From NCBI GenBank assembly GCA_965217895.1, contig CBDCJV010000002.1, forward strand, positions 1-64,000: 64,000 nucleotides of DNA. Reading direction: 5' to 3'. The notes under the pieces are model-generated. The model worked only from the letters and a program-made list of their open reading frames with translations. It was not told the DNA's origin and made no database searches. Positions 2,638-48,663 of this stretch are shown here, in pieces. Source of the DNA: Waterburya sp. Its GTDB lineage: Bacteria; Cyanobacteriota; Cyanobacteriia; Cyanobacteriales; Xenococcaceae. Every line of letters begins with the position of its first letter. Position 1 is the stretch's first letter. The translations under genes and the position numbers were made by a program.

Positions 2638-2720
2638 GTAGGCATATCTAAAAAACGTACAACGAAGTGTACAACGCTTTCTGGAAATGCCTATAAACTC
2701 GTTGGTGTTTTTAGGTTATT

Positions 2721-4877
2721 TTAGTTGTCTTCAGCTAGAGCGGGGTCAAAGTCAATGTCGTTAACATCTGTTTTAGTCTGAACATCTTCCTTAGCCAAGT
2801 CTTTCTCTTCTTTCTTGAGATCTAAGGCGGTGTTAACCTCATTCTTTAGCACCTCTCTTTCTGACTGTAGCTCTGCAAAGCTCTCTCTGATTTCAACTAC
2901 CTCACTACTTACCTCGCCTATTCTGTCTGCCTTTTCTGTGAACTCCTCTACATTCTCAGTCAGACCCGACAGCTTACGCATTGCTCTGTTCTGAGGACTG
3001 TATTTTTCGGACATCTCTTCATAGGCATCTTCGTAAACCGCTCCAGCTTCCCTGAGAGCGTTACCTATCTTACCTGTATTAGTAGCCGAAGCCTCTGCGA
3101 TGTTTCTAGCTGAATCAAACAGACTGAAGGTTAAATCAGCTAAGTTAGCAGCTGATTGGTAGACACGACTATAAGATGCCAGTTTAGCAGTGAGTGCTTC
3201 GTAGTTTCCAGCACCTAATATTCTTTGCATCATCTGAGTTAGTTTTTCACTGACTATCTGTTGGACGTCAAACGGTTTACCTTCCGAGTCTTTAAGCCCC
3301 ATGGCTTGAAGCGTGACGGTAGCAACGTCAGCAAGACTGTTCCCCAATCCTCTAGACAGCATTACCCCGTTATGAATAACTACCGCTGTTGTAAGCGCAT
3401 TGAGGATCTTGTCTCCGTGGGTAGCCTTCCAAGCGGTACTAGCGAATTTTTGTATTTTAGACAGACCATAATCGGCATGAGAAACTATGTCTCTTGTTGT
3501 CGTAGTAGTTGTATCTATTCTTCTAAGTAGAGGATCTTGTAGTAGCAAACCATTTAATAAGCCTGTAATATTTAGCAACCCTGGTGAACCTGGTGCTAAA
3601 GCTCTATTTGCACACGAACCAGCACAGTCATCTGTCGCGGTTTGATTGGGTGGCTTGACAGGGGGGATAATTGGCGGAGGGAATGGTTTAGGGTCGTTAT
3701 CTGTAATTTTTTCTTGCTTAATCGAAGGGGGTGGAACAGGATTAGGAGTAAAAATAATAATATTGTTTTTAGGCTCGGGGTCGGGAGTCTTGGTAATTTT
3801 TACTGGTTTGGGGTCGGGAACTGGTGTAGGCGTTGGGTTTAATATTTCAGAAGGATTTACAGTAATCTTAATAATTTTTCCATCTGAATCCTTGGTCGTA
3901 ATTCTCTTGATGTATTTTTTGCCAGGAACGAGATCGGGGTATTCATTCTTTTGTCCTTGTTTTTGTTCGATTATCTCTTTAGTGCCACCATTAATTTCTG
4001 GCTTTATTTCTGGCTTTGGCTCGGGGTCGGGTATAGGAACAGGTGTAGGAGTAGGTAATATGCCTGGCTTATTACTTATTGTCGGTAGAGGAATAAAATC
4101 AATCTGAGGATACTGGTTATTACCAAAGCTAGGCAGCTTACTAAATCCTGCAAATTGCCATTCTTTAGCTCCAAGCAGATCGATTAAGGCTAATCCTGCT
4201 GCAAACTGATTATTAGCTTTGGTTTTAATATCTTCTTGTATTTCGGGCTGAGGGATATTGTCAACTGTAATAAACCTTTGTCCCCATAGACCGCTAGTAC
4301 CACCCAGGTAGATAGTTGTTATTACACCTAAAAAATCAACGACCTCAACATAATAATCAGCATTACGTTCACCTGCTGGTCTTGAATCGTATTTACCTGT
4401 GCTGGGATAGTAAACGTAGGTAAAAAATTTATTATCGGCTGGATAAGAGGCAATCCCTTTGTAGAATGCCTTTAATCGCCAAGACTGGATGCCGTTAAAC
4501 CGATCTGAGTTGACCCTTACGTAGTCATTACCCCATGTCACCACGCCGTTATTAAGATTAGCTTCTCGATAAACAAAGCGATAATAGGTGTCACGCGACT
4601 GGGGATAGCTTTTTGTGCCTATTTTTTGCTGCTCGTCAATCTGCGTAATCCATTGAGGGATCGTTCCGTCGCTCAAGGGCTTGTTATTAAAGAAAAAATC
4701 AAGAAGAACTAAAGCAGGGATTCCTAGAAGCTTACCTACCCCCTTGAGCAACACAGGTGGTTTTGGTGGTTTGGGGATAGGACTTCTAAAGCTTTCGTAA
4801 ATACTAGGGGGTTCAGTCGTGACGACAAATCTAGTTTGCCCCCCAGGTGTTTTGACAAATTTTGAATAAATGCCCAT
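2721..4877 (-). CDS. 718-aa hypothetical protein, Pro-rich linker and coiled-coil C-terminus; possible virion/adsorption protein
   Basis: Long ORF; PTPTPVPIPDPEPKPE tracts; hydrophobic N-terminal patch. Confidence 0.6.
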   Translation of the reverse strand: MGIYSKFVKTPGGQTRFVVTTEPPSIYESFRSPIPKPPKPPVLLKGVGKLLGIPALVLLDFFFNNKPLSDGTIPQWITQIDEQQKIGTKSYPQSRDTYYRFVYREANLNNGVVTWGNDYVRVNSDRFNGIQSWRLKAFYKGIASYPADNKFFTYVYYPSTGKYDSRPAGERNADYYVEVVDFLGVITTIYLGGTSGLWGQRFITVDNIPQPEIQEDIKTKANNQFAAGLALIDLLGAKEWQFAGFSKLPSFGNNQYPQIDFIPLPTISNKPGILPTPTPVPIPDPEPKPEIKPEINGGTKEIIEQKQGQKNEYPDLVPGKKYIKRITTKDSDGKIIKITVNPSEILNPTPTPVPDPKPVKITKTPDPEPKNNIIIFTPNPVPPPSIKQEKITDNDPKPFPPPIIPPVKPPNQTATDDCAGSCANRALAPGSPGLLNITGLLNGLLLQDPLLRRIDTTTTTTRDIVSHADYGLSKIQKFASTAWKATHGDKILNALTTAVVIHNGVMLSRGLGNSLADVATVTLQAMGLKDSEGKPFDVQQIVSEKLTQMMQRILGAGNYEALTAKLASYSRVYQSAANLADLTFSLFDSARNIAEASATNTGKIGNALREAGAVYEDAYEEMSEKYSPQNRAMRKLSGLTENVEEFTEKADRIGEVSSEVVEIRESFAELQSEREVLKNEVNTALDLKKEEKDLAKEDVQTKTDVNDIDFDPALAEDN

Positions 4878-5185
4878 TAGTTTGCTTTGTAGGCTGCGGG
4901 TAGCTGAGTATTGCTAAACTCCAGTGCTTTCGTCCAAAGCTTTGCCGTATTGTCTTCTGCATAATCGGCTGCTACTTCCAGGCTCAATCTGCCAATAAAC
5001 CTAATTTTTCCATCATCAGCCTGTACCAAAGCGGTTTGCGCTACCTTCTCGGCTGTCTGGTCGGCGATTTCAATGACTGCTAAAGTTGGATTTACTCTTC
5101 TCAATGCCATACACGACCACATAGCTAGGCGTTCTAAAGTATTGATTTGACTTGGAATATCGGTAGCAATGTTAATTTGAGTCAT
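4877..5185 (-). CDS. 102-aa hypothetical protein, translationally coupled to the 718-aa ORF
   Basis: Stop overlaps next start (TAATG). Confidence 0.65.
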   Translation of the reverse strand: MTQINIATDIPSQINTLERLAMWSCMALRRVNPTLAVIEIADQTAEKVAQTALVQADDGKIRFIGRLSLEVAADYAEDNTAKLWTKALEFSNTQLPAAYKAN

Positions 5186-5254
5186 TATTTAGATATCTTT
5201 TGGGTGTAACTAAGGTTAGTATTCAAACAAGTACTAATGTATCATAGACAAAAG

Positions 5255-5584
5255 GTATTTTGTTTTCAAAGCAAGGTACAGGTAAGACTAGGTTAGCTAG
5301 TAAGTTTCCAAAAGACCTTTTACTTAATTTACTACTACTAATTCTTAAATAATCAATAGTATTTTTTAATATATTATTTTTATTCTGGGAGTCTAAGGAA
5401 GAAAGTAAAAGTGACTTAAAGCTATGAGTAGAAAAGGGTGGAGTATAACGGATATCTAGCGGGGTATTACTAGGGCTATTTTGGGCAGGTGAAAACTACT
5501 GGTTGCTATTTTGATTGTTTGGATTTATCATTGTCTTTGTGTAAAGAAAGTTGGTCTTGTTTAACAGGGCTTCTTTTTTTTTGC
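5255..5584 (-). pseudogene. Truncated 5' fragment of the rep gene found at 46663-47703
   Basis: 330 bp nearly identical to 47367-47696. Confidence 0.9.
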
Positions 5585-5588
5585 CTAT

Positions 5589-6038
5589 TTATCGGAAACC
5601 GACTTTTCTTATTTTGTTTTCTACCTGATAGCAGTTATAAGCACCTTTTAAGCTGATAGCAGAGTGAATAGTGTTTTGATAGCTTCTAGCTCTTTCACCA
5701 CTAGACCAGGATTTGTTTTTTTCTAACGTGGTTAATCCTCTACCAGTAAGTTGAATTAATTGGTTAAATTCCTCTTTACTTAGCTTCTCAAAAGTAAAAC
5801 TTAACCAGTCTAAATGGTTATGAAATACGCAAAGAGATTTGTCTATAAAGTTATTATTTTGTAACTCATTACTAGCAGTAGGTACAGATGATTTGTTGGT
5901 TGTAGTAGGTGTAGTGTTTGGGATATCTAATCGGGTGTTACTAGCTAATTCTCCCAAGGGTGCTTTTAAATTGTTGCTATTTTGACTGGTATTTAAATGA
6001 TGAAAGAGTCTGGTTTGTAACCATCCTCTTGGTAGCAC
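5589..6038 (-). pseudogene. Probable N-terminal fragment of a second Rep_trans-like initiator
   Basis: HLDWLSFT and YQNTI segments parallel TIDYLRIS and YQNSI of the 346-aa Rep; ends early. Confidence 0.55.
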
Positions 6039-6275
6039 TAGAAAGCTTTTGTTATCGAACTACAGTATCTTAAGAAACAATTAGATAGACAGATAAAAAA
6101 ACAAAAGACAGATAAAAAGTTTAAAAACAAGAATCAGTAGTTATCCCTACGCGTTTTTAGAGCGTGCCTGTTTCTTATCACGTTTTTAGAGTGCGCATCT
6201 ATTGGAACAACAGAAACTAAACAAAATATTAACACCTGAAATTAAAAGTTAGTATGAATATACCAATTAGAACAG

Positions 6276-7094
6276 GTGAGGAACGAACTTGTGAGTAAAC
6301 CAGATGTTGAAATGTTTCAAAGTTACTGTAGAACTTACTTTAACAAGGCTATAAACAAGCACTTTAGAGACGTTGACGGTAGTGATGACGCTAGCCTTAG
6401 CACGGCTGCGCCAAGACAGCTAATTAAACGTATTTGTCTACATAAGGACACCGATACAATGACTCTTACGTTAGCCAGGATGTTAACCTGGTGGGTAGAA
6501 GCGGGAAACTTATTAGATGAATACGTTTACGGTATTCCTAGCACTGACTTTGAGATTTCTAATACCTACTATCCACAGGTAAAGCTTCACTTTAGAGAGG
6601 ACAAATATGAGGCTTCCGATAATGAAAGAAGACCAGCTAGGAGCGAGGTAAGTTTTAGGTGGAGAGAAGAAGATTATACGACAACAAATATTAATCGACT
6701 GGCTTTAAAAATACTAAATGATTTTGCTAGACCTGTTTTTTTCTACAGAAAAGGCAGACAGTTGTGGAGTTATGCAGACAAACAGAAAGGTTACTTTTTT
6801 AGCGTCACTACAGATGACGAAACGGACGCCAAGAAAATAATCGAGCAGGCAATTAGGATACAAGATGACAGCGAACCAGACTGGGATAATTTTCTCAGAT
6901 ACCACGAAGACAAAAAAAATTACAATGTACCTGGAACAGTACGAGTCATGGGCGATGTAGTCAGGAAGCCAAAACGAAGACCCGTAGCCACAGTTAAATT
7001 TGCTTATGCAGAATTATTTATTCCAGGATTGACTCAACCGCTTATTTTAGTAGACAGAACGGGGACAAAAGCAAGAACGATCGAGGTTGCTTAA
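6276..7094 (+). CDS. 272-aa hypothetical element protein
   Basis: Long ORF, first of the rightward gene block. Confidence 0.7.
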   Translation: MRNELVSKPDVEMFQSYCRTYFNKAINKHFRDVDGSDDASLSTAAPRQLIKRICLHKDTDTMTLTLARMLTWWVEAGNLLDEYVYGIPSTDFEISNTYYPQVKLHFREDKYEASDNERRPARSEVSFRWREEDYTTTNINRLALKILNDFARPVFFYRKGRQLWSYADKQKGYFFSVTTDDETDAKKIIEQAIRIQDDSEPDWDNFLRYHEDKKNYNVPGTVRVMGDVVRKPKRRPVATVKFAYAELFIPGLTQPLILVDRTGTKARTIEVA

Positions 7095-7211
7095 AAAAGT
7101 GTGCGCCCTTAAAGGTCGATTCTCTAATCAGTTGCCAGTCAAATCATTTTCATTCAAAGACAGATAGGTTAGAAACAAAGTGTAAATATATAAAAATAGC
7201 AATAATTAGAT

Positions 7212-7775
7212 ATGGCTAGAAGATTTAGTAGATTAAAATATGCCTTGACCACTTTGCGTACTCCCAACTCAAACGCCCCCACTCCCGATGCCCCTGCTAA
7301 TACAATTGCCAGAAACTTTCAAGACTTTGCTTCTGGGAAAACTAAGTTAGTTTATTCCAGAGACGATAATAGCAATCCTGGTGAAATTTTAAAAACAGGC
7401 ATTTTACCTTTTTTCTTCGGTGGAAACCCTGCGAATGGTGCAATCGTAGCACTTTCAAAACGAGCAGATGAGAAAGCGACTCTGGACTCTGTACAAAGTG
7501 CTTGTAATCATGTTACTTACGACCCAGAAAGTCAAACCAAGATACAGGGCTTTAAACCTGCGCAGGTAACTGTATTTGATTACGGAACAGGTTCGGCATC
7601 ACCAACTAGTCAAATTACGGGCATTAAATACAGCAAGAGAATCGGCAATTCTTTTACCTTCCCGTATGGTGCATCGGCAACAGAAAAAGCAGAAAACAAA
7701 GTTAGAGGGGATATACTTATTGCTGTCGAAGCACTTACGACTGCTTCAGCTAGTTTTCATTCTGAGAAGTATTAA
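7212..7775 (+). CDS. 187-aa hypothetical protein, candidate structural protein
   Basis: Basic N-terminus (MARRFSRLK), Gly/Ser/Thr/Ala-rich body. Confidence 0.6.
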   Translation: MARRFSRLKYALTTLRTPNSNAPTPDAPANTIARNFQDFASGKTKLVYSRDDNSNPGEILKTGILPFFFGGNPANGAIVALSKRADEKATLDSVQSACNHVTYDPESQTKIQGFKPAQVTVFDYGTGSASPTSQITGIKYSKRIGNSFTFPYGASATEKAENKVRGDILIAVEALTTASASFHSEKY

Positions 7776-7777
7776 AA

Positions 7778-8014
7778 ATGCTTGATAGGGCAATAGAGCT
7801 AATTATCCCTGGTGGTAGTACTAGGGATATGAACGACAGTGATCTAGACAGATTAATGGACACCTATGCCATAGTCGAAGTAGCCAAGGACGATTTTTTG
7901 GCTCAGAAAATTAGCTTTCAGGAGTACATCGATTTACTTGAAACCGCTCAAGTGAACATCGACGGCTATCTAGAAACTATTGAAGGCAATCTAGAAGAAA
8001 TGAAATTGGTATAG
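7778..8014 (+). CDS. 78-aa acidic hypothetical protein
   Basis: Tightly packed in operon. Confidence 0.6.
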   Translation: MLDRAIELIIPGGSTRDMNDSDLDRLMDTYAIVEVAKDDFLAQKISFQEYIDLLETAQVNIDGYLETIEGNLEEMKLV

Positions 8015-8020
8015 CCAGTT

Positions 8021-8755
8021 ATGCCAGCAGGACAAGACTTAATATTTTTTGATAACTCTGAAGATTGGAGGATTGTAGCCGATGCTAGTAGAACAGCTAC
8101 TATTATCAATGAAAATTCTCATACCCCTATACCTCCTATCGACCTTGGCGTTAGCCTTTTTTCTGACTATATTGCTGTCGTAGCTACAACAGGCTCGGGC
8201 AAACCTAGCTGGCAGTTTGCAGGAGATATCAGGCAAGTTTACAATTTTGTACCTGGTGGTAATAGCCCCGTAACGAGTGTTCTTCAAAGTCTTCCGACCC
8301 GCTTGTTTATTAACAAGCTACAGATAGTCGAAACAAACCGCATTAGTACCGATAGGTTTAGGCTTAGGTATACACCGCCGTTTTGGTTTAAAGATGTGGC
8401 TATCAGGGTTTACGAATATACAGGTGACACGCTTAACTTCGTCGAGGATGCTTTGTTCGGCATTGGTAATGTGCTAGGCATCGATCCAAATCAACCCAGT
8501 GGTTTGATTGAGGCACAACTAACGGTAATTGAGGAATTGATAACGGATAAATTTAGGGAACTAAGCGAGAGGGAAACTTCCCAGATACAGCTTGATGACT
8601 TTAGAGAAACGCAGCTTAATACTCGGATTAGTCAAACAGACGCAGGATTATATACCTTGGCTGAGGGATTAGCTGCGCTATTGCCACCAGACCAAGGACA
8701 GGCTTTAAGACAAGTGATTGGCAGCAGACTACAAATAGATTTAGGGTTTTTATAA
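8021..8755 (+). CDS. 244-aa hypothetical protein (beta-rich N-terminus, helical C-terminus)
   Basis: Operon packing; stop/start overlap with next ORF. Confidence 0.65.
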   Translation: MPAGQDLIFFDNSEDWRIVADASRTATIINENSHTPIPPIDLGVSLFSDYIAVVATTGSGKPSWQFAGDIRQVYNFVPGGNSPVTSVLQSLPTRLFINKLQIVETNRISTDRFRLRYTPPFWFKDVAIRVYEYTGDTLNFVEDALFGIGNVLGIDPNQPSGLIEAQLTVIEELITDKFRELSERETSQIQLDDFRETQLNTRISQTDAGLYTLAEGLAALLPPDQGQALRQVIGSRLQIDLGFL

Positions 8756-9288
8756 TGGAAAGTTCGATTAAAAAAGATATTATTCTCAATGGCACTGACT
8801 CGATTGCTGTATTTAAAGAAGATGGGTTGGTTTACAGAGCTAAGGAGTTGGAAAGCTATACGCCGATAGTGTTTTATGACTTGAAAGCAAACAAACAACA
8901 CCAGTTTGACTTAAAAGATATTTTGGGCAAGGAGTACTTGGTAGTAGCAGCAGGTAGCGACGTTGAATCTGATGATGACTTTATTAGTGTTTCTGATATA
9001 GACGCCAATAACGCAGGTTATGCAAGTTGTTATTTTTCAATTGTGAGGCTAGAAAAGAGAGTATTTTGTCGCTCTCTACTGCCTACTAAAGAATTTATCG
9101 ACCAAAACTTTATTACTTTAACTCCAGGGGATACGGTACTAATTTCTCCATTAGCTAACTTGAATTCGTTAACACTTTACTGTGTACCTATCTATCTAGA
9201 AAAAACAATAACAGTATCAGGAGTAATAATAAATGAACCTGTCGATCAAGGAGATGCGGGAACGGGCGATGGCAGCGATAACAAGTAG
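8755..9288 (+). CDS. 177-aa hypothetical protein
   Basis: TAATG coupling to previous ORF. Confidence 0.6.
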   Translation: MESSIKKDIILNGTDSIAVFKEDGLVYRAKELESYTPIVFYDLKANKQHQFDLKDILGKEYLVVAAGSDVESDDDFISVSDIDANNAGYASCYFSIVRLEKRVFCRSLLPTKEFIDQNFITLTPGDTVLISPLANLNSLTLYCVPIYLEKTITVSGVIINEPVDQGDAGTGDGSDNK

Positions 9289-9859
9289 AACATCTGATGA
9301 CGAATGCCTGAGTGTTGATTACCTAATCGATACCGAAGCAAGAAAAGTTTTAAACCTCCCCCCTAGACCTAAAGGAGCTTTGCCTTATGTTGGCTGGATG
9401 ACACAGCCTGATGAAAAAACGATTAAACCTAATAAGACTTCGCAGATTGGCGTAAGCCTGATCAAGAAGTGGGAAGGCTTAAGAACCAATGCTTATCTTT
9501 GTCCCGCTGGTGTCTGGACTATTGGTTATGGACACACTAAGGGAGTAAAGCAAGGACAGATGATTAGTCACCTTGAAGCTGAAAACCTTCTTATAGAGGA
9601 CTTGAGAATTTACGAACAAGCTGTACTCAGGCTTGTAGACGTGCCTTTAAATCAGAATCAGTTTGATGCCTTAGTTAGCTTTACCTTTAACGTAGGTATT
9701 GATGCGTTTAGTGAATCTACTTTGCTTAAACTACTCAATCAAAAAGACTATCAAAGAGCGTTTAATGAGTTTAGCCGTTGGACTAGAGCAGGAGGAAAAC
9801 TTTTGCCTGGTTTGGTTAACCGCAGAAAAGACGAATGCAATTTATTTATAAAGCAATGA
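9233..9859 (+). CDS. Phage lysozyme (GH24 endolysin); start uncertain
   Basis: LIKKWEGLR..AYLCPAGVWTIGYGHT, NQNQFDALVSFTFNVG, LPGLVNRR. Confidence 0.93.
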   Translation: MNLSIKEMRERAMAAITSRTSDDECLSVDYLIDTEARKVLNLPPRPKGALPYVGWMTQPDEKTIKPNKTSQIGVSLIKKWEGLRTNAYLCPAGVWTIGYGHTKGVKQGQMISHLEAENLLIEDLRIYEQAVLRLVDVPLNQNQFDALVSFTFNVGIDAFSESTLLKLLNQKDYQRAFNEFSRWTRAGGKLLPGLVNRRKDECNLFIKQ

Positions 9860-10257
9860 TTACTAAAGGTTTTACTCGACTACCTCCATTAAGCTTGAAT
9901 TTGCTTTCTGGAGGTGTTTTTGTGTTTATCGTTTGTTTAGGTATACGGGTTGCTCGTGCGCCTGAAGTCGGCTTAAAGGTAGCGAATACTCAGCTAATCA
10001 TTGGCAGCAGTGCGAACAAACTTACAGAAGTAGCAGCTAAGCTAGATAGTCAGGCTGAGATTATTAGGCAAAAAGACGAGGCTTACGAGAAGCTAAGAAA
10101 GGTTTACGAGGAGTCTTTAAAAGGACAGGAAGGGTACGGAAGATTACAGGGAGCGATAGAAGAGATTCAGGAATTGCCAGAGGTAGAAAATACAGAAGAG
10201 ATAAAAACAGAAATATCAGCTACTAAGAAAATTATTAAGCAGGTAACTAGTGAGTAG
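9856..10257 (+). CDS. Membrane-anchored coiled-coil protein, spanin-like by position and topology
   Basis: One N-terminal hydrophobic helix then coiled coil, directly after lysozyme (ATGA overlap). Confidence 0.5.
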   Translation: MITKGFTRLPPLSLNLLSGGVFVFIVCLGIRVARAPEVGLKVANTQLIIGSSANKLTEVAAKLDSQAEIIRQKDEAYEKLRKVYEESLKGQEGYGRLQGAIEEIQELPEVENTEEIKTEISATKKIIKQVTSE

Positions 10258-10376
10258 ATGTATATCTGAAAAACGTTGAACGATGTGTTGAACGCTTTTA
10301 GAAGATGTTCTTAGAAGAGAGAACAAGTAAAGTTTTTATATAAGTGATTATTTCCCTGTGGCTACGCCCACCCACC

Positions 10377-10412
10377 CCTAGTATATTTCCCTTGCCTAGT
10401 ATATTTCCCTTG
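10377..10412. repeat. Perfect 18-bp tandem repeat x2
   Basis: CCTAGTATATTTCCCTTG twice, followed by an AT-rich tract. Confidence 0.9.
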
Positions 10413-10679
10413 GAGCGAAGCGGAATAGGGTTATTAATATAATTGCTTTTAAAAACACTAACGTCAATAGTTGTGTAATTATTATTTACAATAAAAATAA
10501 TAATTTTAATTATTTAAAAAATAAGCCAATTTTTAGCTAAAATTTCCGTATTTTTCCTGATGCGAGTCAAAAAAAAAACGATAGTAGATTAAGTTTAAAA
10601 AGTCAAATCTACTTACCTTTGAATCAAAGCTCTGAGAGATTGCCTTTAAAGCTTTAGCTAACAATTCAATAGGAAAACT

Positions 10680-10991
10680 ATGCCTGAAATAGAGACTATT
10701 ACCTGGCGAGAAATGACGGGTAATAAGTTTATCAAAGCTTTGCACCCCGCTATGGTTAGCGAGGCTGGATACGAGTGTAATAAAAGTATTCGACGTATTG
10801 GCGATCCAGTACCGACCATGTTTAAAGTTATTTACGACCGTCAATATGTAATCAATTACATAGGAAAAGGAGTCTGCAAAACACTTTTTGTTTTAGGTAA
10901 AGAAGGAGTGTTAGATCTTGTTGACGAAGCTTGGGATAATTACTACGGGGTTCTAGACAACAAGAAGCGCTCTTACGAGGAATCTGCTTGA
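10680..10991 (+). CDS. 103-aa hypothetical protein
   Basis: RBS-like AGGA before ATG; first of second rightward operon. Confidence 0.6.
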   Translation: MPEIETITWREMTGNKFIKALHPAMVSEAGYECNKSIRRIGDPVPTMFKVIYDRQYVINYIGKGVCKTLFVLGKEGVLDLVDEAWDNYYGVLDNKKRSYEESA

Positions 10992-11515
10992 TGCCAGCGA
11001 GACCAAAATATAAAGCCGTGCCTGTTTTTTGGAATACAGAACTCTGTTCTGTCCTTGACTCTAGGAATTTAGAAATATATCGAGTAAAAGGCAGGCTAAA
11101 TCTCCCCGAGCATATCTGGAGGTTTGACTCCCAGCACGAGTTTAAAACATATCTAGAGCTATGCAGAATGTACGGTGAAAACAGGATAATTAGACAGCTA
11201 CCAGTATCAATACTAAAGCCTAGTTATTGTTATCCAAGAGGGAAAACATGGAAAGTCGATTTTGCCATTTCTAATAATTCTCAACCTAACAAACCTTTGT
11301 TTTTTGTAGAGGCAAAAGGTGCATTCTTAACAGAATTTGCTCTTATCTTAGGAATCTTAGAAGAACTTCGGTTTAATATTTTCCGCAGGCTTAGAATTGT
11401 CTTTCCTGAAAAGCTACCAGTTGAAAACAAGATGGTTAAAACACTGCTTCAGTCCGACTTCAAAAAAAATCTGTTGACCTTAAAAGAACTAGAAAAATTA
11501 AAAATATTACGATGA
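10988..11515 (+). CDS. PD-(D/E)XK-type nuclease, DUF1064-like
   Basis: FDSQHE...VDF...VEAKG pattern. Confidence 0.65.
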   Translation: MMPARPKYKAVPVFWNTELCSVLDSRNLEIYRVKGRLNLPEHIWRFDSQHEFKTYLELCRMYGENRIIRQLPVSILKPSYCYPRGKTWKVDFAISNNSQPNKPLFFVEAKGAFLTEFALILGILEELRFNIFRRLRIVFPEKLPVENKMVKTLLQSDFKKNLLTLKELEKLKILR

Positions 11516-11733
11516 CACCAATAGAATCACCTTACGATGTTCGACTCGTTACTTTAATCGGCTTGGCTATAAACGCGGTTGAAACACTAGCACTAGAACA
11601 GAACAAAAATCCAGAACAGCTTGTAGCCGAGCTGCTGTATGTGACAAATAAAAGGCTGCACGAAATAGGGGAAGAAGATTATTTCAAGAAGTTGTCTTCT
11701 TTCTACCCTATTCTCTCTGAGACAATCTACTAA
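11512..11733 (+). CDS. 73-aa hypothetical protein
   Basis: ATGA overlap with upstream ORF. Confidence 0.55.
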   Translation: MTPIESPYDVRLVTLIGLAINAVETLALEQNKNPEQLVAELLYVTNKRLHEIGEEDYFKKLSSFYPILSETIY

Positions 11734-11766
11734 TTATTTCAACGCAAACATATATCGAGAACAGTA

Positions 11767-12486
11767 ATGACAGTAAAGTATTTAGACCCCTACAAAGACG
11801 ACCTCTATGGCAAACTCAAAGGAGACAAAGCAGAAACATATTTCAAAGTTACCTTTGATGAAGCTAAAGTATACCCTACGAATGATGCTTACATTATCGC
11901 TGCTTTTGTCACTAGTTATTCTGGCATCGTCAGAAGCTTCAAAGCAAGTGAAGTACTCGTGCCTGGATTATGCGCCATACCTATCTACGGACAAGAATAC
12001 GAAATAAGAGAAAAAGATGCTAACGGCAATTGGCAGGGTATCAAGTATCAACCGTCGGTTTTTGAAAAGGCTTTATACGAATATATCAAAACAAACGAAG
12101 CCTTTTTTATCCCTCCTTCTGGTGGCATCAAAGGAGAACTTGCTTTTATTCCTAACGGGATATGTGCATCGATGGACCAGGCTAGCCTGGAGGCACTGGT
12201 AGCAACCAACGCCAAAACTGAGGTCATCGATCTTAGCGGTAAGTTACCGCAATATACTCCACCGTCGAACGGTGGTTTTAAGAAGAATGGTGGGGATAGC
12301 AAAGGAGCTTCGATAGAAGAGAAACTAGCTTTTCTTAAAAAGCAGATGACTGCGGATATCAAAGACACTAGCTATACCGAGGAAGATTCCTTGGCTACTC
12401 TGACAAGACGAGTTCACACAGAGAACGAAGACTGCGAAGGCTTTTCCGATATCTACTTTGAGATGTTAATGGCAATTATCAGATAA
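11767..12486 (+). CDS. 239-aa hypothetical protein, possibly ssDNA-binding/replication related
   Basis: ORF directly upstream of ATPase; Gly-rich linker. Confidence 0.55.
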   Translation: MTVKYLDPYKDDLYGKLKGDKAETYFKVTFDEAKVYPTNDAYIIAAFVTSYSGIVRSFKASEVLVPGLCAIPIYGQEYEIREKDANGNWQGIKYQPSVFEKALYEYIKTNEAFFIPPSGGIKGELAFIPNGICASMDQASLEALVATNAKTEVIDLSGKLPQYTPPSNGGFKKNGGDSKGASIEEKLAFLKKQMTADIKDTSYTEEDSLATLTRRVHTENEDCEGFSDIYFEMLMAIIR

Positions 12487-12488
12487 CT

Positions 12489-13682
12489 ATGGCTTACGAT
12501 TACTCAACCTTGTTTGTGTCTGAGGACGGCATAAGCGACACCTGGAGGGAAATTTATAGTGACAATTTGACTCTTCCTGGAAACTTGCTAAACATCCTCA
12601 AGCAAACAATATTTCTGCCTCATGACTTTTACGATATTATCGCTACTTACTTTATGCTCCCTTCTGCTTTGTGTAAGATTGTTCCTTATTTGTTCCTCAA
12701 CGGACAATCGGGAAGTGGCAAATCAACGCTTGCTAAACTGGCTAGTTGTCTACACGGTGTTCCTATTAACTCTAGTAGTGATACTTTTGCTGGCATAAGA
12801 AACAGCTTAGAAGAAAGAAGGACCGCCTGGGCAGAAGTGCCAGTAGCAGAAGGAGAAAATCAATCTCCTTACAAGACAGTCGAAAGAAATACCTGTATGG
12901 TTTGGGACGACGTTAGTGCTAACACCTTTACCAGTAGTCCAGAGCTGTACAATATGTTTAAGTTTGGGTATGACAAAAGTACAGATAAGATTGTTGTCTC
13001 GTCTAAAGAAACAGGAGTCAATATAGAGTTTAGGTGCTTTTGTCCTAAAGTGTTTTCTAGCATCTCACCTCTGCATCTAGACGATCGCTTTAAAGAACTA
13101 AGGAGGCGACTGATAGTAATCCCTTGTAGTCGCGTAGAGGAACTTTCAGACAATCGTAAGATCGAGTTAGGGATAACCGATGATAACTGGCAAAGTGCGT
13201 TACTGGATATATCTGCTTATAGCTGGAAAGGGTTCTCTAAGCTATATGATGAGTTTTGGGACATCGACGTAGCTAGTACTTTTGTTACTGCTAGGCGTAT
13301 TTTAAGCAAGTCAGTAAAAGGACTAGGTTCTCAACAAAGAACTATTAGCCTTGACATGATGGCTTGTGGGATTGCCACTGGTATCTGGTCAGACGACACG
13401 GAAGCAGTTAACAGGATGAGAGATTATTGGTTTTGGTTTAAAAGGGAAACCGAAAAGAGCGCGGGGTTAAGTAGTCTGCTTAGAGATTTTGTAGCTACTG
13501 AAACCAAGAATGCCTTGAACGCCAACATGGAACTGATACTCTATACAGCTCAAATACGCGGTCAAGTAGATATGTGGGTACAGCAAGGTTGGTTGTTTGA
13601 AGCTCCTAAGCCAAGAGACACTAAAGAGTGTTTGCTTGATTTGGGATTGAGATTGCAAAAAGGCAAATGGACTAAAGGATAA
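12489..13682 (+). CDS. P-loop ATPase (helicase/primase-associated type)
   Basis: Walker A GQSGSGKS, Walker B MVWDD, ELRRR arginine-finger-like motif. Confidence 0.8.
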   Translation: MAYDYSTLFVSEDGISDTWREIYSDNLTLPGNLLNILKQTIFLPHDFYDIIATYFMLPSALCKIVPYLFLNGQSGSGKSTLAKLASCLHGVPINSSSDTFAGIRNSLEERRTAWAEVPVAEGENQSPYKTVERNTCMVWDDVSANTFTSSPELYNMFKFGYDKSTDKIVVSSKETGVNIEFRCFCPKVFSSISPLHLDDRFKELRRRLIVIPCSRVEELSDNRKIELGITDDNWQSALLDISAYSWKGFSKLYDEFWDIDVASTFVTARRILSKSVKGLGSQQRTISLDMMACGIATGIWSDDTEAVNRMRDYWFWFKRETEKSAGLSSLLRDFVATETKNALNANMELILYTAQIRGQVDMWVQQGWLFEAPKPRDTKECLLDLGLRLQKGKWTKG

Positions 13683-13689
13683 GAAGATT

Positions 13690-14022
13690 ATGAAATTTAC
13701 ACAAGAAGAAAAATTTTTTCTATTGCTTGCTTTATCGGAAAAATCGGAAAGGAACGCCAACGCTTTGAAGAAGCTTGAAAACAATAAAGGTCGCCTGTCT
13801 TTTCGTAGTCTTCAAGAGCTAGAAGAAGGGTTAATTAGTGCTCGTGCAGCCGAATTAGGCTTTATGCTAATGCGCAAGATAATTAAAAGTCAGAAGCCAA
13901 TACCCGAAAGCTTTGAAGCTCTAAGAGAAATCGATGGAAATATTCTTACCTCTAGAGCAATAATAGCGGTTTTAGAAGCCTGTGAAGAATTTGATTGGAC
14001 AAAAGCAGCAGGGTGCAATTAA
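13690..14022 (+). CDS. 110-aa hypothetical protein
   Basis: Operon packing. Confidence 0.55.
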   Translation: MKFTQEEKFFLLLALSEKSERNANALKKLENNKGRLSFRSLQELEEGLISARAAELGFMLMRKIIKSQKPIPESFEALREIDGNILTSRAIIAVLEACEEFDWTKAAGCN

Positions 14023-14251
14023 GTTCTGGTCGCTGAAGCACGCGATAGATGACGAGGTAGCTATTTTAGGCTGGTCTACTACAGCCTGCATATCTGTCAT
14101 CAAGAAACGCTATGAGAAGCGTTCTAGGTTGCTTTTAAGCGATGAACAGCTTGAAGACCTGTTAACGTACCTACGTCTTTTAAACGCTGGTGGTGATACT
14201 CAAAAATTACTCACTAAGAAGGAAAAGCGTAAGAAGCGTAGGCGTAAGTAA
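13982..14251 (+). CDS. 89-aa basic hypothetical protein
   Basis: Lys/Arg-rich C-terminus; start uncertain. Confidence 0.5.
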   Translation: MKNLIGQKQQGAIKFWSLKHAIDDEVAILGWSTTACISVIKKRYEKRSRLLLSDEQLEDLLTYLRLLNAGGDTQKLLTKKEKRKKRRRK

Positions 14252-14308
14252 AAAACGTACAACGCAGTGTACAACGCTCTAGAAATATACAAACACTAAA
14301 GGAGGCTC

Positions 14309-14617
14309 ATGAGAAAAAGAAATAGGCTACACAAAGGGTTTTCGCTGGATATCGAAACAATAGAAGCAATAAAAATAAAGTCCATTGAAGAAAAGGACAA
14401 CGATAGTAGAGCTTTAGATGTAATCGTACGTGAGTGGAGGGAGTTTGAACAGAGACAAAAATACGCCGAGCAAAACCGCACTTTCAATGACGAGGAATTG
14501 CTCAAAAAAGTATCATCTCTTTGTAGGCGCTCTTTTGAGCTTTATGACGAGATCTCAGATCTAAGGTCAGAAATCAACACTAATGTCTGGGAGACTAAGA
14601 GGGAAGAGGCTATATAG
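14309..14617 (+). CDS. RHH-like protein
   Basis: Strong RBS AAGGAGG; KGFSLD..TIEAIK...SRALDVIVREW. Confidence 0.6.
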   Translation: MRKRNRLHKGFSLDIETIEAIKIKSIEEKDNDSRALDVIVREWREFEQRQKYAEQNRTFNDEELLKKVSSLCRRSFELYDEISDLRSEINTNVWETKREEAI

Positions 14618-14769
14618 CCTCTATTGTACATTGTTTGTCCTCAATTCAGCCGAACAGTTTTCTTGGTACTGGGAAGCAGAGAAAACAGATGCTTACATAG
14701 TCACTCAAATTAAGCGGTTTGGGACGGTTTTGAAGATTTGGTTTTTTTTACAAATACGAAAGGAATATT

Positions 14770-15033
14770 ATGAACAAAAAAGAAATACTAGAGCTTATTA
14801 CTGACTCAAGCGAAAGAGACTTGCTAAAAGTTGAAGAATTAGCAACCGAATATAATGTAAATTTTGATATTGCTACGAGGCTAGTCATAAAAAACTGGTT
14901 TGACTACCAAGAAGAAAAGCAGTTAGAAGACGGATCGAAGTTACTTCGTTTAGGAGGTTTAAAAGAAAAACTGATTTCTACAGATGGGATAGTAGATAAG
15001 ATGATAGAAAAGCTAGAAAGCGATCGAAAATAG
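14770..15033 (+). CDS. 87-aa hypothetical, RHH-like
   Basis: RBS AAGGA; VEELATEYNVNFDIATRLVIKNW. Confidence 0.5.
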   Translation: MNKKEILELITDSSERDLLKVEELATEYNVNFDIATRLVIKNWFDYQEEKQLEDGSKLLRLGGLKEKLISTDGIVDKMIEKLESDRK

Positions 15034-15157
15034 ACTAATAGAGGTAAGGGAAAATAGAAATAATCCACTACTTCCCTAACAGGATGTGCATTAAGCTTAA
15101 ATCTCATTCTCGTGCGAGTAGAGGTTAGGATAAATTTCAGATACTAGATTTGACATA

Positions 15158-15197
15158 ATGACGGAGTTGTGATATTTTGCAACCCGTCATTTTTTTG
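15158..15197 (+). terminator. Intrinsic terminator
   Basis: tgacggagttg...caacccgtca followed by T run. Confidence 0.6.
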
Positions 15198-15357
15198 TGC
15201 TTATCTAACCGCTCGATAAATTGGGGTACATAAGTACCCTATTGCTTTTTGTTTAGGAGCTTTGTATATTTAGTTTTGAGTAAGTTTTGAGTAAATCAAC
15301 GTTGACCGTAAAAGGTCGTTGCGATGAAAGTCGGTTGAGATGAGGCTTTGAGCCGAA

Positions 15358-15443
15358 TGGGGGTAGGGAGACTTGAACTCCCACGACCTTTTACGGTCAA
15401 CGGATTTTAAATCCGCAGCGTCTACCAATTCCGCCATACCCCC
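15358..15443 (-). tRNA. trnL: tRNA-Leu(UAA), intronless
   Basis: GGGGGTA/TACCCCC acceptor stem, anticodon TAA, long variable arm, GTTCAA T-loop. Confidence 0.95.
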
Positions 15444-21355: not shown

Positions 21356-22633
21356 ATGGCTACTTATAGCAATAATATTATATTTGGAAGTTCTGGTAAC
21401 GATATCTTATGGATTGGTTATGGAGATGACCTTATCTATGGTTATGCAGGAAACGATAAATTGGCTGGTTCTCGAGGCAATGATACCCTACTTGGAGGTG
21501 AAGGCAACGATAGTATCTATGGCGATGAAGGCAACGATAGTCTTGATGGAGGCGAGGGAAATGACTCTATCTGGGGTGGCGTAGGAGATGATTTCTCAGA
21601 TGGTGGTAACGGTAATGATTGGTTGGCTGGTTATCTGGGCAACGATACCCTCAAGGGAGGTGAAGGCAACGATAGCATCTATGGCGACGAAGGCAACGAT
21701 AGTCTTGATGGAGGCGGGGGCAACGACTCTATCTGGGGTGGCGTAGGAGATGATTTCTCAGATGGTGGTAACGGTAATGACAGTTTGACTGGTTATCTAG
21801 GCAACGATACCCTCAAGGGAGGTGAAGGCAACGATAGTATTTCTGGCGATGAAGGCAACGATAGTCTGGTTGGAGGCGGGGGCAACGACTCTATCTGGGA
21901 TGGTATTGGAGATGATGTCTTGGATGGTGGTGACGGTAATGATACGTTAGATGCCTACATAGGAAACGATACACTAATTGGTGGTAATGGCGACGACTTA
22001 CTAATGGGTGGTGAAGATGTCGCTTGGGAAGCTGGCGATTGGGGTCCAGATAGAGATGTGTTGGATGGTGGAGCTGGCAATGACAGCTTATATGGTGGAG
22101 CCGATGATGACCTGCTTTATGGTGGCTCTGGTAACGATATATTAGAGGGAACTTCAGGAAATGATACGCTATTTGGCGATACAGGTATGGACAGTCTTTA
22201 CGGTAGTGTAGGAGACGATGTTCTGTTTGGAGGCGCTGATAACGATCAGTTGTGGGGTAGCGAAGGCAACGATAGAATGTCAGGAGATGACGGTAATGAC
22301 AAGCTGCTTGGTGCAGACGGTAACGACATCCTCATTGGTGGAAATGGTCAAGACACTTTACATGGAGGTTCAGGCTCTGATATTTTTGTATTAGAGCGTA
22401 ATAGCGGTAAAGATTTTATATTGGATTTTCAAGATGGCGTAGATCTTCTGGGTTTATCCCCAGGATTAAGCTTTACTGACTTAACTTTTGCCTCTATGGG
22501 AATGGGAAGCATTAACGGAACAGAAATACTAAAAGACGGAGAGCTTTTAGCCACCTTGTATGGTGCTAAGCCTAACTTGATCGATCAAAGTGATTTCGTC
22601 ACAGGAGGGTTTGACAAAAATTCATGGAGCTAG
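21356..22633 (+). CDS. RTX/hemolysin-type Ca-binding repeat protein
   Basis: Many GGxGND nonamers; D-x-I-x-DF C-terminal motif. Confidence 0.9.
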   Translation: MATYSNNIIFGSSGNDILWIGYGDDLIYGYAGNDKLAGSRGNDTLLGGEGNDSIYGDEGNDSLDGGEGNDSIWGGVGDDFSDGGNGNDWLAGYLGNDTLKGGEGNDSIYGDEGNDSLDGGGGNDSIWGGVGDDFSDGGNGNDSLTGYLGNDTLKGGEGNDSISGDEGNDSLVGGGGNDSIWDGIGDDVLDGGDGNDTLDAYIGNDTLIGGNGDDLLMGGEDVAWEAGDWGPDRDVLDGGAGNDSLYGGADDDLLYGGSGNDILEGTSGNDTLFGDTGMDSLYGSVGDDVLFGGADNDQLWGSEGNDRMSGDDGNDKLLGADGNDILIGGNGQDTLHGGSGSDIFVLERNSGKDFILDFQDGVDLLGLSPGLSFTDLTFASMGMGSINGTEILKDGELLATLYGAKPNLIDQSDFVTGGFDKNSWS

Positions 22634-25398: not shown

Positions 25399-25561
25399 GT
25401 AGGGGCGAACGGCTCTTCGGGTTCAACACTTCTTACAAAAGTTGCTCATGGGGGAAACCTCCACTCTCGCAAAGAACGCACTTTTGCGCTTTTCTCAAGT
25501 CGAGAAAGGCTTTAGCCACATCTGACCCGCCCAACGAAAGTGTCTCACCGTTTGCCCCTAC
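25399..25561. repeat. REP-like palindrome GTAGGGGCGAACGG...CCGTTTGCCCCTAC interrupted by ~134 bp
   Basis: Terminal inverted arms; compact relative at 25957-25982. Confidence 0.7.
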
Positions 25562-37610: not shown

Positions 37611-37711
37611 CATGCTTCCTAAACACGAAGGACTTGTCCGCACGTAGCACTCCTCGCCATCAAATCCCAGCTTAACTTTTTTGATTTTTATTTGATTTTA
37701 AAAATTAGCCT

Positions 37712-39919: not shown

Positions 39920-40192
39920 GGGATGAAATTACAAATAGTTTAAGACTGCTGTGTAAATATTAATCAAAACTCGTCGCTTAATTGAGACTGTTATTGGACA
40001 ACTAGCAGAGCGTTTTCATTTCGAGACTGTTCGAGCGAGGGATTACATGCGGCTTAAGCCTTTGTGGCATTTTACTAGTCGTATTAGTTTAGTCGTAAAC
40101 TTTTAGCTCATATTCAACAGCTTATTTTTAATTAAAAGTTGCACACGGCATATAAAATATATCTTAGATTTTATTTAAGTACATATGTTTAT

Positions 40193-44685: not shown

Positions 44686-44958
<273 letters not shown>

Positions 44959-45637: not shown

Positions 45638-45745
45638 TCGCCATTACAGCGTAAATATGCTGCTTTGCGAGATAGTCCGCTGCACGGGTTTCCAAGGGGC
45701 TATCCATTAAAAGGGGTTCTTTGCTATTATAAGTTAGCTACGTTG

Positions 45746-45830
45746 GGAGAGGTGGCAGAGTGGTCGAACGCGCTCGACTTGAAATCGGGAAAAGTGAAAG
45801 CTTTCGTGGGTTCGAATCCCACCCTCTCCG
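45746..45830 (+). tRNA. trnS: tRNA-Ser(UGA)
   Basis: GGAGAGG/CCTCTCC stem, anticodon TGA, GTTCGAATC. Confidence 0.95.
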
Positions 45831-46662
45831 TACTTTCGGGGCTATTGTACTCAGAATGTACTCAGAGTACATTGACAATTTAAGCTTCCCTCTGTGATTA
45901 TTTTGACTGTAGGTATTGACTTGAGTACTTGAGTGTGCATTAAAGCAACAGTTCTTTTGTGCTGCAAAACTAAGCCTAGACTTGACAAAATACCCACATT
46001 AGTATCCATTTTGAGTCCTTAGTTTTTCCTTAGAAGATAATACAAATGAACCAGTCTAATTTGAGCTTAAGTAGTAGCTAGCAGAGGGAAATCAGATTTA
46101 GCTCAAATCAAGTGATTTTGAGTTACTATTTAAGCGTCTGATTTTTCTACTCTCAAACCAATTTGGGTGATTTGGGTGAAAACAATTTTTGAGTAAGAGC
46201 ATCTTCTGAAAACGTAATACGTTTTGTTATACACTTTCTAGATATACACTCACTCACTAGAAACTTGCTTAATAATTTTCTAATTGCACCTATAAAAGTT
46301 TGTAATTATCCTAGTAACCTTTCGTAGTTCTATTTAACTTTTACTCAAGCCTAAAAACAGGGTAGGTAAGTACATCTGAAAAACGTACAACGAAGTGTAT
46401 AACACTTTTCAAAGATGCCTACAGTAGCTAGGTTTTGCTTAATCTAAATCTAGGTAATCTAGGTTATTTCGTAGGTACTCAATTCGCTTTTTATCCTGTT
46501 GAGTAAACTTAGACTAATAGTGTTTAAAAGGCTCGTTTAAGCAGCAAGGAACTTGATAGGTATCAAAGGCAATTAATAGCCTATCAAGTCTCTAACTAGT
46601 GCCTTTATGTGTCGCTAAAGCTATTGTTTTGTTTAATTAGCTTTTTGAAAGTTACTGATAGC

Positions 46663-47703
46663 TTAGTTTTCAATTAGTGAGTAGATAGTGGTTTTGCAGT
46701 TCCTCCAAAAAGGCAACTGAATAGTTCTTTCTGTAGCGCAGTTTATTGGTGATTTACTGCTACTTTTGTCTCTGAAGTCTATTTGGTCTAAAGCAGCGTC
46801 AACTAAGGCTTTGTTAATGTCTTTTGTTGGTAGAGTACCGCTATCATTTTCTTTACCTAAACTAGCTAATTCTGTGAATAACCTTTGTGCTTTATTCTGC
46901 TTTAATTCTGCTTCCCATCTAATAAAATCTTTGTGTTGTGAGTAGATTCTAATGAACAGTTCAGAACGTCTTGAAGCTACTCCTAGCGTACCTGACCAAC
47001 CTTCATTAGTTAGGCGAAAATATTCTTTATCATTCTTTGTGAAACCGCAACAATCGCCTCTCTCAATAGCTAGTATCATTTGACGTACTGGGAACAACTC
47101 TTCTGAGTAATCATCGATAGCTACGTCTATACGGTGACATTTAAGCTTCCAATAGCTGTTTAGGTAGTTTATTAGCTTTATCTGTTCTACTAGGCTTAAA
47201 TTGGCAAAATAAGAGCCAGAAAAATCAATCATGATGTCGTAGGCATATCTGGTATTTCTACCTCTGTATTTGGCTCTTTTTGTGTAGCCTCCTATTATTC
47301 CTTTGTCAGATTCAATGCTGTTTTGATACTTCTTGCTTTTAGGCATCTTTGGATGAGTATGCCAAAGTATTTTGTTTTCAAAGCAAGGTACAGGTAAGAC
47401 TAGGTTAGCTAGTAAGTTTTCAAAAGACCTTTTACTTAATTTACTACTACTAATTCTTAAATAATCAATAGTAATTTTTAATATATTATTTTTATTTTGG
47501 GAGTCTAAGGAAGAAAGTAAAAGTGACTTAAAGCTATGAGTAGAAAGGGGTGGAGTATAACGGATATCTAGCGGGGTATTACTAGGGCTATTTTGGCTAG
47601 CTGAAAACTGCTGGTTGCTATTTTGATTGTTTGGTTTTATCATTGCCTTTGTGTAAAGAAAGTTAGTCTTGTTTAACAGGGCTTCTTTTTTTTTGCTTGT
47701 CAA
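46663..47703 (-). CDS. Replication initiation factor (Rep_trans-like rolling-circle initiator)
   Basis: IDYLR, HRIDVAIDD, FIRIY, RWEAELK. Confidence 0.75.
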   Translation of the reverse strand: MTSKKKEALLNKTNFLYTKAMIKPNNQNSNQQFSASQNSPSNTPLDIRYTPPLSTHSFKSLLLSSLDSQNKNNILKITIDYLRISSSKLSKRSFENLLANLVLPVPCFENKILWHTHPKMPKSKKYQNSIESDKGIIGGYTKRAKYRGRNTRYAYDIMIDFSGSYFANLSLVEQIKLINYLNSYWKLKCHRIDVAIDDYSEELFPVRQMILAIERGDCCGFTKNDKEYFRLTNEGWSGTLGVASRRSELFIRIYSQHKDFIRWEAELKQNKAQRLFTELASLGKENDSGTLPTKDINKALVDAALDQIDFRDKSSSKSPINCATERTIQLPFWRNCKTTIYSLIEN

Positions 47704-48663
47704 TACCTGTTAAGTATCTTTGTACTGTTGTACTCGAAGTTTCAAAGATGGTGCAAACAGAACATAGGCAGTTACAGGAAACTTACTCAGGCAGCAAAAT
47801 AGGCTGACTAAGCAAGGTGTACCTGAAAAGTACCTTATAGAGTGCTTAAGTCACTTCAAAAGCTTGTAGATAGGCTTTTTTGAAGTGCTAATCAAACGGA
47901 AGCTAGAAGCTTATGCGGTAAAAGATGGTGTTTGGGTGAAGAGGTAGGTAGGCATATCTAAAAAACGTACAACACTTTGTTATACACTTTCTGGAAATGC
48001 CTATAAAATCGTTGGTTTAGCCGAGTAATTTTACCGTGAAGACTGTAGAAAAGCAGTAGTAATTGCAGATATATCCTAGAGGCGGTTAACCGAGATTTTA
48101 CGCCTTTGCTTCTGAATGTCAACCGTTTTTCTGCTGGAAAAATCCTTCGGACAAGCGGTTTGACATTCTTCAGCTTCGGCTATTTTTAGTGTCTGTTCCG
48201 CCTCGAAGGGATATTCAAACTGAGTTGGGAATCGACCTATGGGGCGCGCACTGAGTAAGTAGGCTGTTAATACCCCTATAACCAGTATCCAAGCAGTTGC
48301 ATCTAGGAGCTAATTCTAGGGGGGTGTTATTGGAAGTATGGGTAAGTTTCCTAATTTGCTATTAAGTGGCTAAAATAGGCAAAATACGGTTAGGGTTAGT
48401 TTGAACCAATAAAAAACGCCTCGTGGGATACGAGACGCTTGTGAAACATGGCTAAAAGATTATGTTAGAAATCTAACTCAAATATTGACTACTAGCTAAC
48501 TATTTTTGACCTTCACTTTCTTTGTGTGTTTTGTTTAGTTGAAGCTTAGTTTCGATTGAACAATAATCATAAAGTTGTTGAAAATTACATTATTACTAGC
48601 TTTGTTAATAAATACCATTTAAGGAATAAGTGATTAAGCTAAAGCTAGTAATAATAAAACATT

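Follow-up and report, generated by a model that had tools for sequence, protein, structure and literature searches.

Why do two integrated elements of one cyanobacterial genome carry the same 29-bp double palindrome at their gene borders, and what might read it there? The question is raised by positions 1 to 64,000 of contig CBDCJV010000002.1 from Waterburya sp. (assembly GCA_965217895.1), the whole stretch that was analyzed and is called here the window. It contains element 1, a phage-like element of 15 kb integrated at a tRNA gene, and element 2, a satellite. A sequence-only reading of this DNA had listed six copies, at 2652, 10270, 14252, 46209, 46380 and 47962, and all six were found at those coordinates. 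We propose, with a probability of about 0.45, that the site is an array for an element-encoded dimeric binder, probably of the ribbon-helix-helix (RHH) type, that would act as a repressor or as a roadblock. The six copies are as follows, with proteins and their genes designated by length in amino acids (aa).

2652..2680, site S1, between the convergent 161-aa and 718-aa genes, with an outer inverted repeat at about 2640-2692
10270..10298, site S3, 12 bp past the stop codon of the last virion/lysis gene (140 aa) and 381 bp before the replication block
14252..14280, site S4, abutting the stop of the 89-aa gene and 28 bp before the 102-aa RHH-like gene
46209..46237, satellite site c, proximal to the tRNA gene
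46380..46408, satellite site b, on the downstream side of rep
47962..47990, satellite site a, part of a 128-bp block (47889-48016) with 92% identity to 2579-2706 of element 1

All six copies fit YGT-N3-ACR-N3-YGT-N3-ACR, with an A-rich left flank and a T-rich right flank. This core pattern matches six times in the window and 10 times in the whole 5.29-Mb genome, whereas the window, dinucleotide-shuffled 300 times, averaged 0.007 core matches (maximum, 1) and had none with the flanks. A scan of the genome with a position weight matrix (PWM) placed ten sites at 31.5 to 39.5 bits and the next-best place at 19.4 bits. Two matches were left out of the PWM, one from the same genus that lies inside a host gene (L022) and one near a contig end that nearly duplicates an L015 site (L016); here and below, G numbers designate genomes (G000 being the host genome), L numbers designate loci or contigs, and C2 is a contig of the host genome. 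Since the reversed-pattern control also gave no match in G000, chance and a host regulon are both ruled out. Of the four sites outside the window, three belong to a second copy of element 1 and the fourth lies 240 bp after tRNA-Leu(TAG). Thus, none of the ten genomic sites lies in housekeeping DNA, as the sequence-only reading had claimed for the window, and its placement of the element 1 copies right after stop codons, at or near module boundaries, was also borne out, with starts 14, 12 and 0 bp past the stops.

The site consists of two 9-bp pseudo-palindromes, 12 bp apart from center to center (13 bp in G006 and G081), within an imperfect inverted repeat of about 53 bp. Among 28 aligned sites, the G,T columns and their mirrored A,C columns vary little or not at all in either half, the A/T signal of the flanks is strong, and a weaker symmetry around the core extends to about 53 bp. 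The longer inverted repeat is therefore real, as had been noticed, with information reaching about 24 to 28 bp from the site center. Paired-dimer binding is favored because each half is a palindrome of its own with these mirrored columns. In the sites of the host genome, the half-site centers read W-N-W and the middle triplet is restricted. This triplet usually takes either of two reverse-complement forms, identical to the flank of one half or of the other, which suggests two overlapping palindromic units 12 bp apart. The earlier description of fixed triplets and varying spacers holds for the triplets; the spacers are not free but are specific to each element across relatives. The same letters can also be parsed as 11-bp arms around a 7-bp spacer (11-7-11), or as 11-8-11 in G006 and G081.

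Each element carries its own version of the site. Comparison of 59 sites showed that half-site centers match in 0.59 of 35 within-element pairs versus 0.13 of 785 between-element pairs, and that 7-base spacers are identical in 0.40 and 0.11 of the pairs, respectively; none of 2000 permutations reached either within-element value, a statistic that is inflated by related elements, which are not independent. Within elements, the center triplets occur as exact reverse-complement pairs. Sister elements retain the flanks and change the core. Between element 1 and G023, the three sites share 52, 56 and 50 of 60 flanking bases versus 10, 11 and 15 of 21 core bases; the corresponding values are 51/60 and 9/21 for S3 of G023 and G023b, and 48/60 and 10/21 for S4 of L024 and G081, which also differ in spacing. 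Satellite site a and S1 have 59/60 identical flanking bases and 13/21 identical core bases. The pair L095 and L092 is an exception without this contrast (flank, 39/60; core, 15/21). The sharing within elements and the changed cores of sister elements indicate that the core is homogenized within an element and quickly replaced between elements. At the level of sequence, such element-own versions point to a private control signal or a private gene-shuffling signal.

The sites are tied to the gene blocks of the two elements, which are listed here.

204..15383, forward strand, element 1, phage-like, with a 41-bp repeat of the tRNA-Leu(TAA) 3' end at 204-244 and 15343-15383
321..1726, forward strand, tyrosine integrase (PHROG 1, E 6e-8)
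2152..2637, forward strand, 161-aa protein, candidate binder, with an N-terminal RHH-like segment and, by inspection, a coiled coil and a C-terminal helix-turn-helix (HTH)-like segment
2721..5185, reverse strand, inverted block of a 718-aa and a 102-aa gene, which in site-less relatives runs in the same direction as the 272-aa gene
5250..6038, reverse strand, two Rep_trans-type 5' gene fragments, in the place of site S2 of relatives
6276..10257, forward strand, putative virion and lysis block (272, 187, 78, 244 and 177 aa, lysozyme, and a 140-aa membrane/coiled-coil protein)
9233-9859, phage lysozyme (PF00959, E 6e-52)
10680..14251, forward strand, putative replication block (103, 175, 73, 239, 397, 110 and 89 aa)
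14309..15033, forward strand, two small RHH-like genes (102 aa and 87 aa), assigned by inspection, with no library match
15358..15443, reverse strand, tRNA-Leu(TAA), the integration target of element 1
45796..49674, reverse strand, element 2, satellite, with a 41-bp repeat of the tRNA-Ser(TGA) 3' end
46663-47703, reverse strand, Rep_trans gene of element 2 (PF02486)
48664-49653, reverse strand, integrase of element 2

In G023, G017, G006 and G081, full elements follow the gene order of element 1, with S1 after the 161-aa gene, S3 after the 140-aa gene and S4 after the 89-aa gene. In all full relatives examined (these four, L085, L094 and L100), the sites are intergenic and tied to operon ends. 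An extra site, S2, lies at the far end of the inverted block in G017, L012, L085, L094, G008 and L155; its place is taken by the rep fragments in element 1, and G006 has a further site inside the block. Satellites (L013, L023, L088/L090 and element 2) display the order integrase, site, rep, one or more sites, a small RHH-like gene or none, and tRNA. In element 1, G023, L019, L021, L024, L026, L090 and L094, a small RHH-like gene begins at a distance of 28 to 45 bp from the last site. Confinement to mobile elements, at module borders, thus holds in the host genome and in relatives. Elements of the genus have 3 or 4 sites, and G106/G540 have up to 6.

The first pattern matched 9 of 36 genomes of the same genus and none of 24 genomes from other families. 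Among the 35 loci of the genome scan, 11 are in motif-bearing records titled Pleurocapsa, Hyellaceae, Myxosarcina or cyanobacterium, and the remaining 24 are single matches in unrelated taxa. From metagenomes, 37 loci were retrieved, of which 35 were annotated after two duplicates had been skipped; 17 of these have clear matches to element proteins. Viral contigs gave five motif matches, the three that were viewed all being devoid of outer arms, and no match to a second pattern. In other families, elements of G540, G577, G106, G742, G474 and G497 have tandem pseudo-palindromes of an analogous, element-specific kind where genes meet, with one to three units and periods of 12 to 14 bp. Counted over all relatives, three units occur in G006, G577 and G742 and a single unit in G074 and G474, and the period is 12, 13 or 14 bp. 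In G106, G577 and G742, the sites lie between co-directional genes beside the helicase gene.

A k-mer test did not separate the elements from the background. A generic detector of tandem palindromes recovered 10 of 28 loci; known cases in element 2, G016, G106, G474 and G742 escaped it, and it also responded to 9 of 148 host windows, three of them with at least three sites. Three observations on other loci are recorded here. In G346, a relative (L132-L133) carries another dispersed motif, located at four junctions between genes. In G497, a small element (L146:11700-15100) has two sites around genes for a 133-aa protein containing the 103-aa domain and a 183-aa coiled-coil protein, with an adjacent integrase gene. 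Similar tandem palindromes occur in metagenome contigs of other GC content that have no clear element match, namely, L117, L093, L102, L111, L119 and L120, the last having three copies between genes (4836, 5032 and 5589).

A binding array is favored because it accommodates the symmetry of the half-sites, arrays of one to three units, the intergenic position of the sites and their fast divergence. Each 9-bp half would hold one dimer, and adjacent dimers, 12 to 13 bp apart, would bind cooperatively. Sites at operon ends and between genes would keep the prophage silent, those near gene starts serving as operators and those after stops as transcription roadblocks. The fast divergence of the core between sister elements would follow if the core sets an immunity-like specificity, and satellites, by retaining the site, would share the on/off state of their helper.

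Two known systems resemble such an array in part. The YefM-YoeB operator has two palindromes 12 bp apart from center to center that are cooperatively bound, according to PMC1802561 and PMC3920265, and this geometry, found in RHH antitoxin operators, is that of the site studied here. Operators of the YefM-YoeB type overlap one promoter less than 80 bp from the start of the regulator gene, whereas only S4 is near a start codon of a candidate regulator (28 bp), S1 and S3 being beyond 80 bp and the other sites following stops. Stoperators of Cluster A mycobacteriophages (L5 and Bxb1) are, according to PMC6550527, 13-bp repressor sites numbering up to about 30 per genome, dispersed, mostly not at promoters, oriented with transcription, and of a consensus that differs between related phages. 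Dispersal and a consensus differing between related elements are common to both. Unlike the stoperator phages, the elements have 3 to 6 paired pseudo-palindromes with mixed spacer orientation at block borders, and no repressor was found whose distance follows the motif.

Several observations weigh against a binding array. A simple scan for the sigma-70 consensus gave no match overlapping S1, S3 or S4, and one weak match beginning inside satellite site a. S1 lies between convergent 3' ends, an odd position for an operator. Some elements contain mismatched sites, namely, S1 versus S3 and S4 in G081 and S3 versus S4 in G023b. A switch of specificity also needs all sites to change together and hence a copying process that is absent from the binding model. 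None of the candidate binders tracked the site variants, with 6 to 11 elements available per family. The RHH strand of the 161-aa protein is nearly the same in G017 and L085 despite different sites, the genes after S4 differ between L094 and L098 despite the same site, and neither the helicase C terminus nor the 89-aa protein follows the variants. A column scan of 15 families in 6 to 11 elements gave near-perfect columns in four unrelated proteins; a column of the 103-aa protein, perfect in 10 elements, was rejected as a specificity marker since it failed in G081 and G023b. The covariation test is weak because each element has two or three RHH-like paralogues and independent pairs are few; its outcome was nevertheless negative.

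The sequence-only reading had proposed an operator for RHH-like proteins, which agrees with the architecture of the site and with the copy at 14252, 28 bp before the 102-aa gene; covariation brought no further support. Of the binders that it had named, the 161-aa protein has a weak profile match (E 0.016) to PDB 2kel, which we take to be an RHH protein, and the 87-aa protein differs between two copies of element 1 that share the same sites. No Pfam RHH match was obtained. A model of the 103-aa protein (predicted local distance difference test [pLDDT] score, 82.0) gave no clear fold match (best Z, 2.3), which shows neither a new fold nor a difference.

The main rival, a serious one although we consider it less likely than a binding array, holds that the 29-mer is a recombination site, with 11-bp arms and an asymmetric 7-bp spacer, for inverting, deleting and swapping functional blocks. 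S1-S2 inversion would then restore an ancestral virion operon, deletion from site to site would make satellites, and selection would act on spacer identity between partners rather than on spacer sequence. Five of the six elements with S1/S2 pairs (G017, L085, L012, G008 and L155) have inverted spacers matching at 6 to 7 of 7 bases, the outer arms of L085 match at 32/32 positions in inverted orientation, and the four sites of G017 alternate one identical spacer. Spacer identity is also higher within than between elements, and the order integrase-site-rep-site of satellites counts in the same direction. The block after S1 is co-directional, i.e., reversed, in three related contigs (L103, L107 and L115) and opposite in 13 other elements, and it is bracketed by sites in G106. 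Recombination would further account for the absence of a covarying protein. The five inverted pairs are, however, not independent, because only three spacer classes are present; the S1/S2 pair of G006 is direct, and several spacer pairs mismatch. One- and three-unit arrays with periods of 12 to 14 bp do not fit the fixed two-arm geometry of a recombinase. The site is associated with three unrelated types of integrase, two of which show 24% identity, and no further recombinase was detected. None of the elements examined has an inverted replication block.

Mosaic breakpoints at the motif, for which the sequence-only reading had suggested looking, were not found in sister elements. Alignments of element 1 and G023 run through all three sites, and recent exchanges (the shared block 2579-2706 and swaps between the two copies of element 1) end away from the site center. 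The contigs of three sequencing runs, which drop rare forms, revealed neither a strand switch nor an excision joint. Of the recombination signal proposed in that reading, the inverted spacer pairs thus stand in favor, and the location of breakpoints, the alignments through sites, the variable geometry and the lack of strand-switch joints stand against. Tyrosine-recombinase simple sites, shufflons and integron cassette borders offer a close comparison: the 11-7-11 parse, the matching inverted spacers around an inverted block and the position after stop codons are alike, whereas units and period vary here, a dedicated recombinase is lacking, breakpoints are off center, and no inverted molecules were seen in the contigs. 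Lambdoid phages have boundary or linker sequences, short conserved intergenic sequences at the module borders of mosaic genomes. Unlike these linkers, every border here has one site family, in which the core changes fastest and the flanks stay.

Binding and recombination are not exclusive, since repeats that are nearly palindromic would also draw homologous exchange and template switching, a possible source of the copying that the binding array requires. A wider version of this idea, to which we give somewhat less credence than to a recombination site as such, is a modular-assembly system with self-homogenizing borders. Blocks would be inverted, and would pass between elements and satellites, with no recombinase devoted to the task. 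The virion block would act as a switch by its inversion, and a change of specificity in an element would rewrite the core at all borders together.

It is improbable that the site acts in cis in replication, partition or packaging, as a signal recognized by the helicase or a virion protein and used by satellites through their helper. The sites do lie on both sides of the replication block and of the rep cassette, in distant relatives they are next to the helicase gene, and elements with another primase-helicase or rep type (G053, G579, G495, G078 and a remnant at C2:3.93 Mb) have none. The C-terminal domain of the helicase does not, however, follow the site variants, G308 has the helicase without recurring sites, and of 20 further loci that have the 272-aa gene and this virion block on other backbones, 19 are without sites. 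Element 2 resembles the Rep_trans satellites or mobilizable elements, a family described in PMC5714925, in combining a Rep_trans gene with an integrase at a tRNA. The difference is that the motif lies away from the rep 5' end and is present in rep-less elements. A Rep nick site is unlikely for the same DNA, since a different conserved 37-bp sequence in the rep 5' end fits better, and a Rep_trans double-strand origin does not agree with the rep-less elements or with the location of the site. Integrase arm-type sites lie within about 200 bp of the core of the attachment (att) site, and the motif does not fit this role, with the nearest copies about 370 bp to 5 kb from att.

Alternatively, symmetry rather than sequence could be what counts: single-stranded DNA would fold at the site as a stem bearing small ears, and the flipped triplets would arise from hairpin-linked copying. 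We regard this as quite improbable. Exact reverse-complement center triplets within elements would fit, as would S3 of G023b, in which an otherwise invariant second base and its mirror have both switched in both halves, and complementarity within sites exceeds that between sites at offsets 5, 7, 10 and 11. At offsets 15 to 18, complementarity is lower within sites than between them; direct-repeat halves (27/59 sites) are as common as inverted ones (23/59); and the z-scores for folding, calculated for eight genomic sites, lie between -1.2 and -6.8 and are weak in six. An intrinsic terminator or RNA element at operon ends is very improbable, even though sites directly follow stop codons and have outer arms able to pair, because no terminator-like match (a GC-rich stem followed by a T run) was found at the element 1 or satellite sites, no Rfam match was obtained, and many sites have direct-repeat cores that pair poorly.

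The elements themselves also deserve description. The phage-like label of element 1 rests on the lysozyme, the integrase and synteny, because library searches found no terminase, portal or known capsid among its proteins. In the replication block, the 175-aa protein is nuclease-like by motif and the 397-aa protein is P-loop helicase-like, with weak primase/helicase matches; beyond the integrase, the lysozyme and this P-loop protein, no other protein of element 1 matched the libraries. The two elements share a 333-bp piece of the rep 5' end at 96% identity (5252-5584 versus 47364-47696). The 37-bp sequence mentioned above is present at 5437-5473, 5908-5944 and 47549-47585, with related remnants in G017 and L094, and is a possible rolling-circle origin that would let the satellite Rep act on element 1. 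Directly after S3, a GC-rich hairpin-like stretch (about 10320-10410), conserved in G023, G017, G006 and G016, is possibly a replication or single-strand origin. Short direct repeats with an 11-bp period near both att ends (about 45846-45875 and 310-330) are probably integrase arm sites.

The second copy of element 1 (C2:3,468-3,483 kb) is 99.4% identical, adjoins tRNA-Asp and has three sites; the 87-aa and 110-aa genes differ between the two copies, and the sites are the same. This copy (C2:3,468,000-3,483,500) lies at tRNA-Asp and yet ends in a tRNA-Leu(TAA)-type repeat, and the flank at its end belongs to the tRNA-Leu(TAG) locus in G017, a mismatch due either to rearrangement between copies or to misassembly. 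The window integrase gene is 4 bp shorter than that of copy 2 near position 497 and is therefore frameshifted; contigs of the sequencing runs show a longer, unbroken integrase. The contig starts in repeated DNA, bases 1-204 being equal to the flank of copy 2, and assembly may have created the left end of element 1 and its apparent copy number. The sites themselves are covered by sequencing-run contigs, with no alternative letters at S1. Elsewhere on C2, a related virion block without sites occupies another backbone at 3,922,000-3,934,000 (small integrase, HTH and 245-aa proteins), this remnant encoding a 102-aa protein identical to that of element 1, and the last kilobases of the far end (L030) are GC-rich and unlike the host, possibly reflecting assembly contamination. 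Outside the elements, the window contains an RTX calcium-binding repeat protein (21356-22633), a DndE gene (25558-25944) with no other dnd gene among the window open reading frames scanned, a group II intron reverse transcriptase plus intron 3' domains (35977-37610), and a single-module nonribosomal peptide synthetase-like protein with a formyltransferase domain (40139-44536).

The 272-aa protein (6276-7094) marks the wider family, with 633 protein clusters and occurrences in 101 of 401 genomes of the order. Its family had no match in PDB sequences, no PHROG family common to its members and no match in GenBank phages, and leads in a protein atlas were all under 0.9. From sequence, it is a candidate major virion protein of an undescribed virus family. 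The neighboring 187-aa protein (7212-7775) has no relative in viral contigs and nothing usable in the atlas, and its model (pLDDT, 88.5) gave no clear fold match in three libraries (best Z, 3.9), which shows neither a new fold nor a difference. In the literature searched, which was largely open access with supplements excluded, no description of the site or of the element family was found. Dispersed repressor sites are already known as a kind; as a module-shuffling system, the site would be new in kind.

Temperate cyanobacterial viruses are poorly known, and the site is a handle on silencing or rearrangement in one branch of a family, as well as on the coupling of satellites to helper elements. 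Sister elements with the same flanks and different cores are a ready test of cognate versus heterologous pairs. If the proposed roles are true, the engineering of cyanobacteria would also profit from orthogonal protein-site pairs or from a new inversion system.

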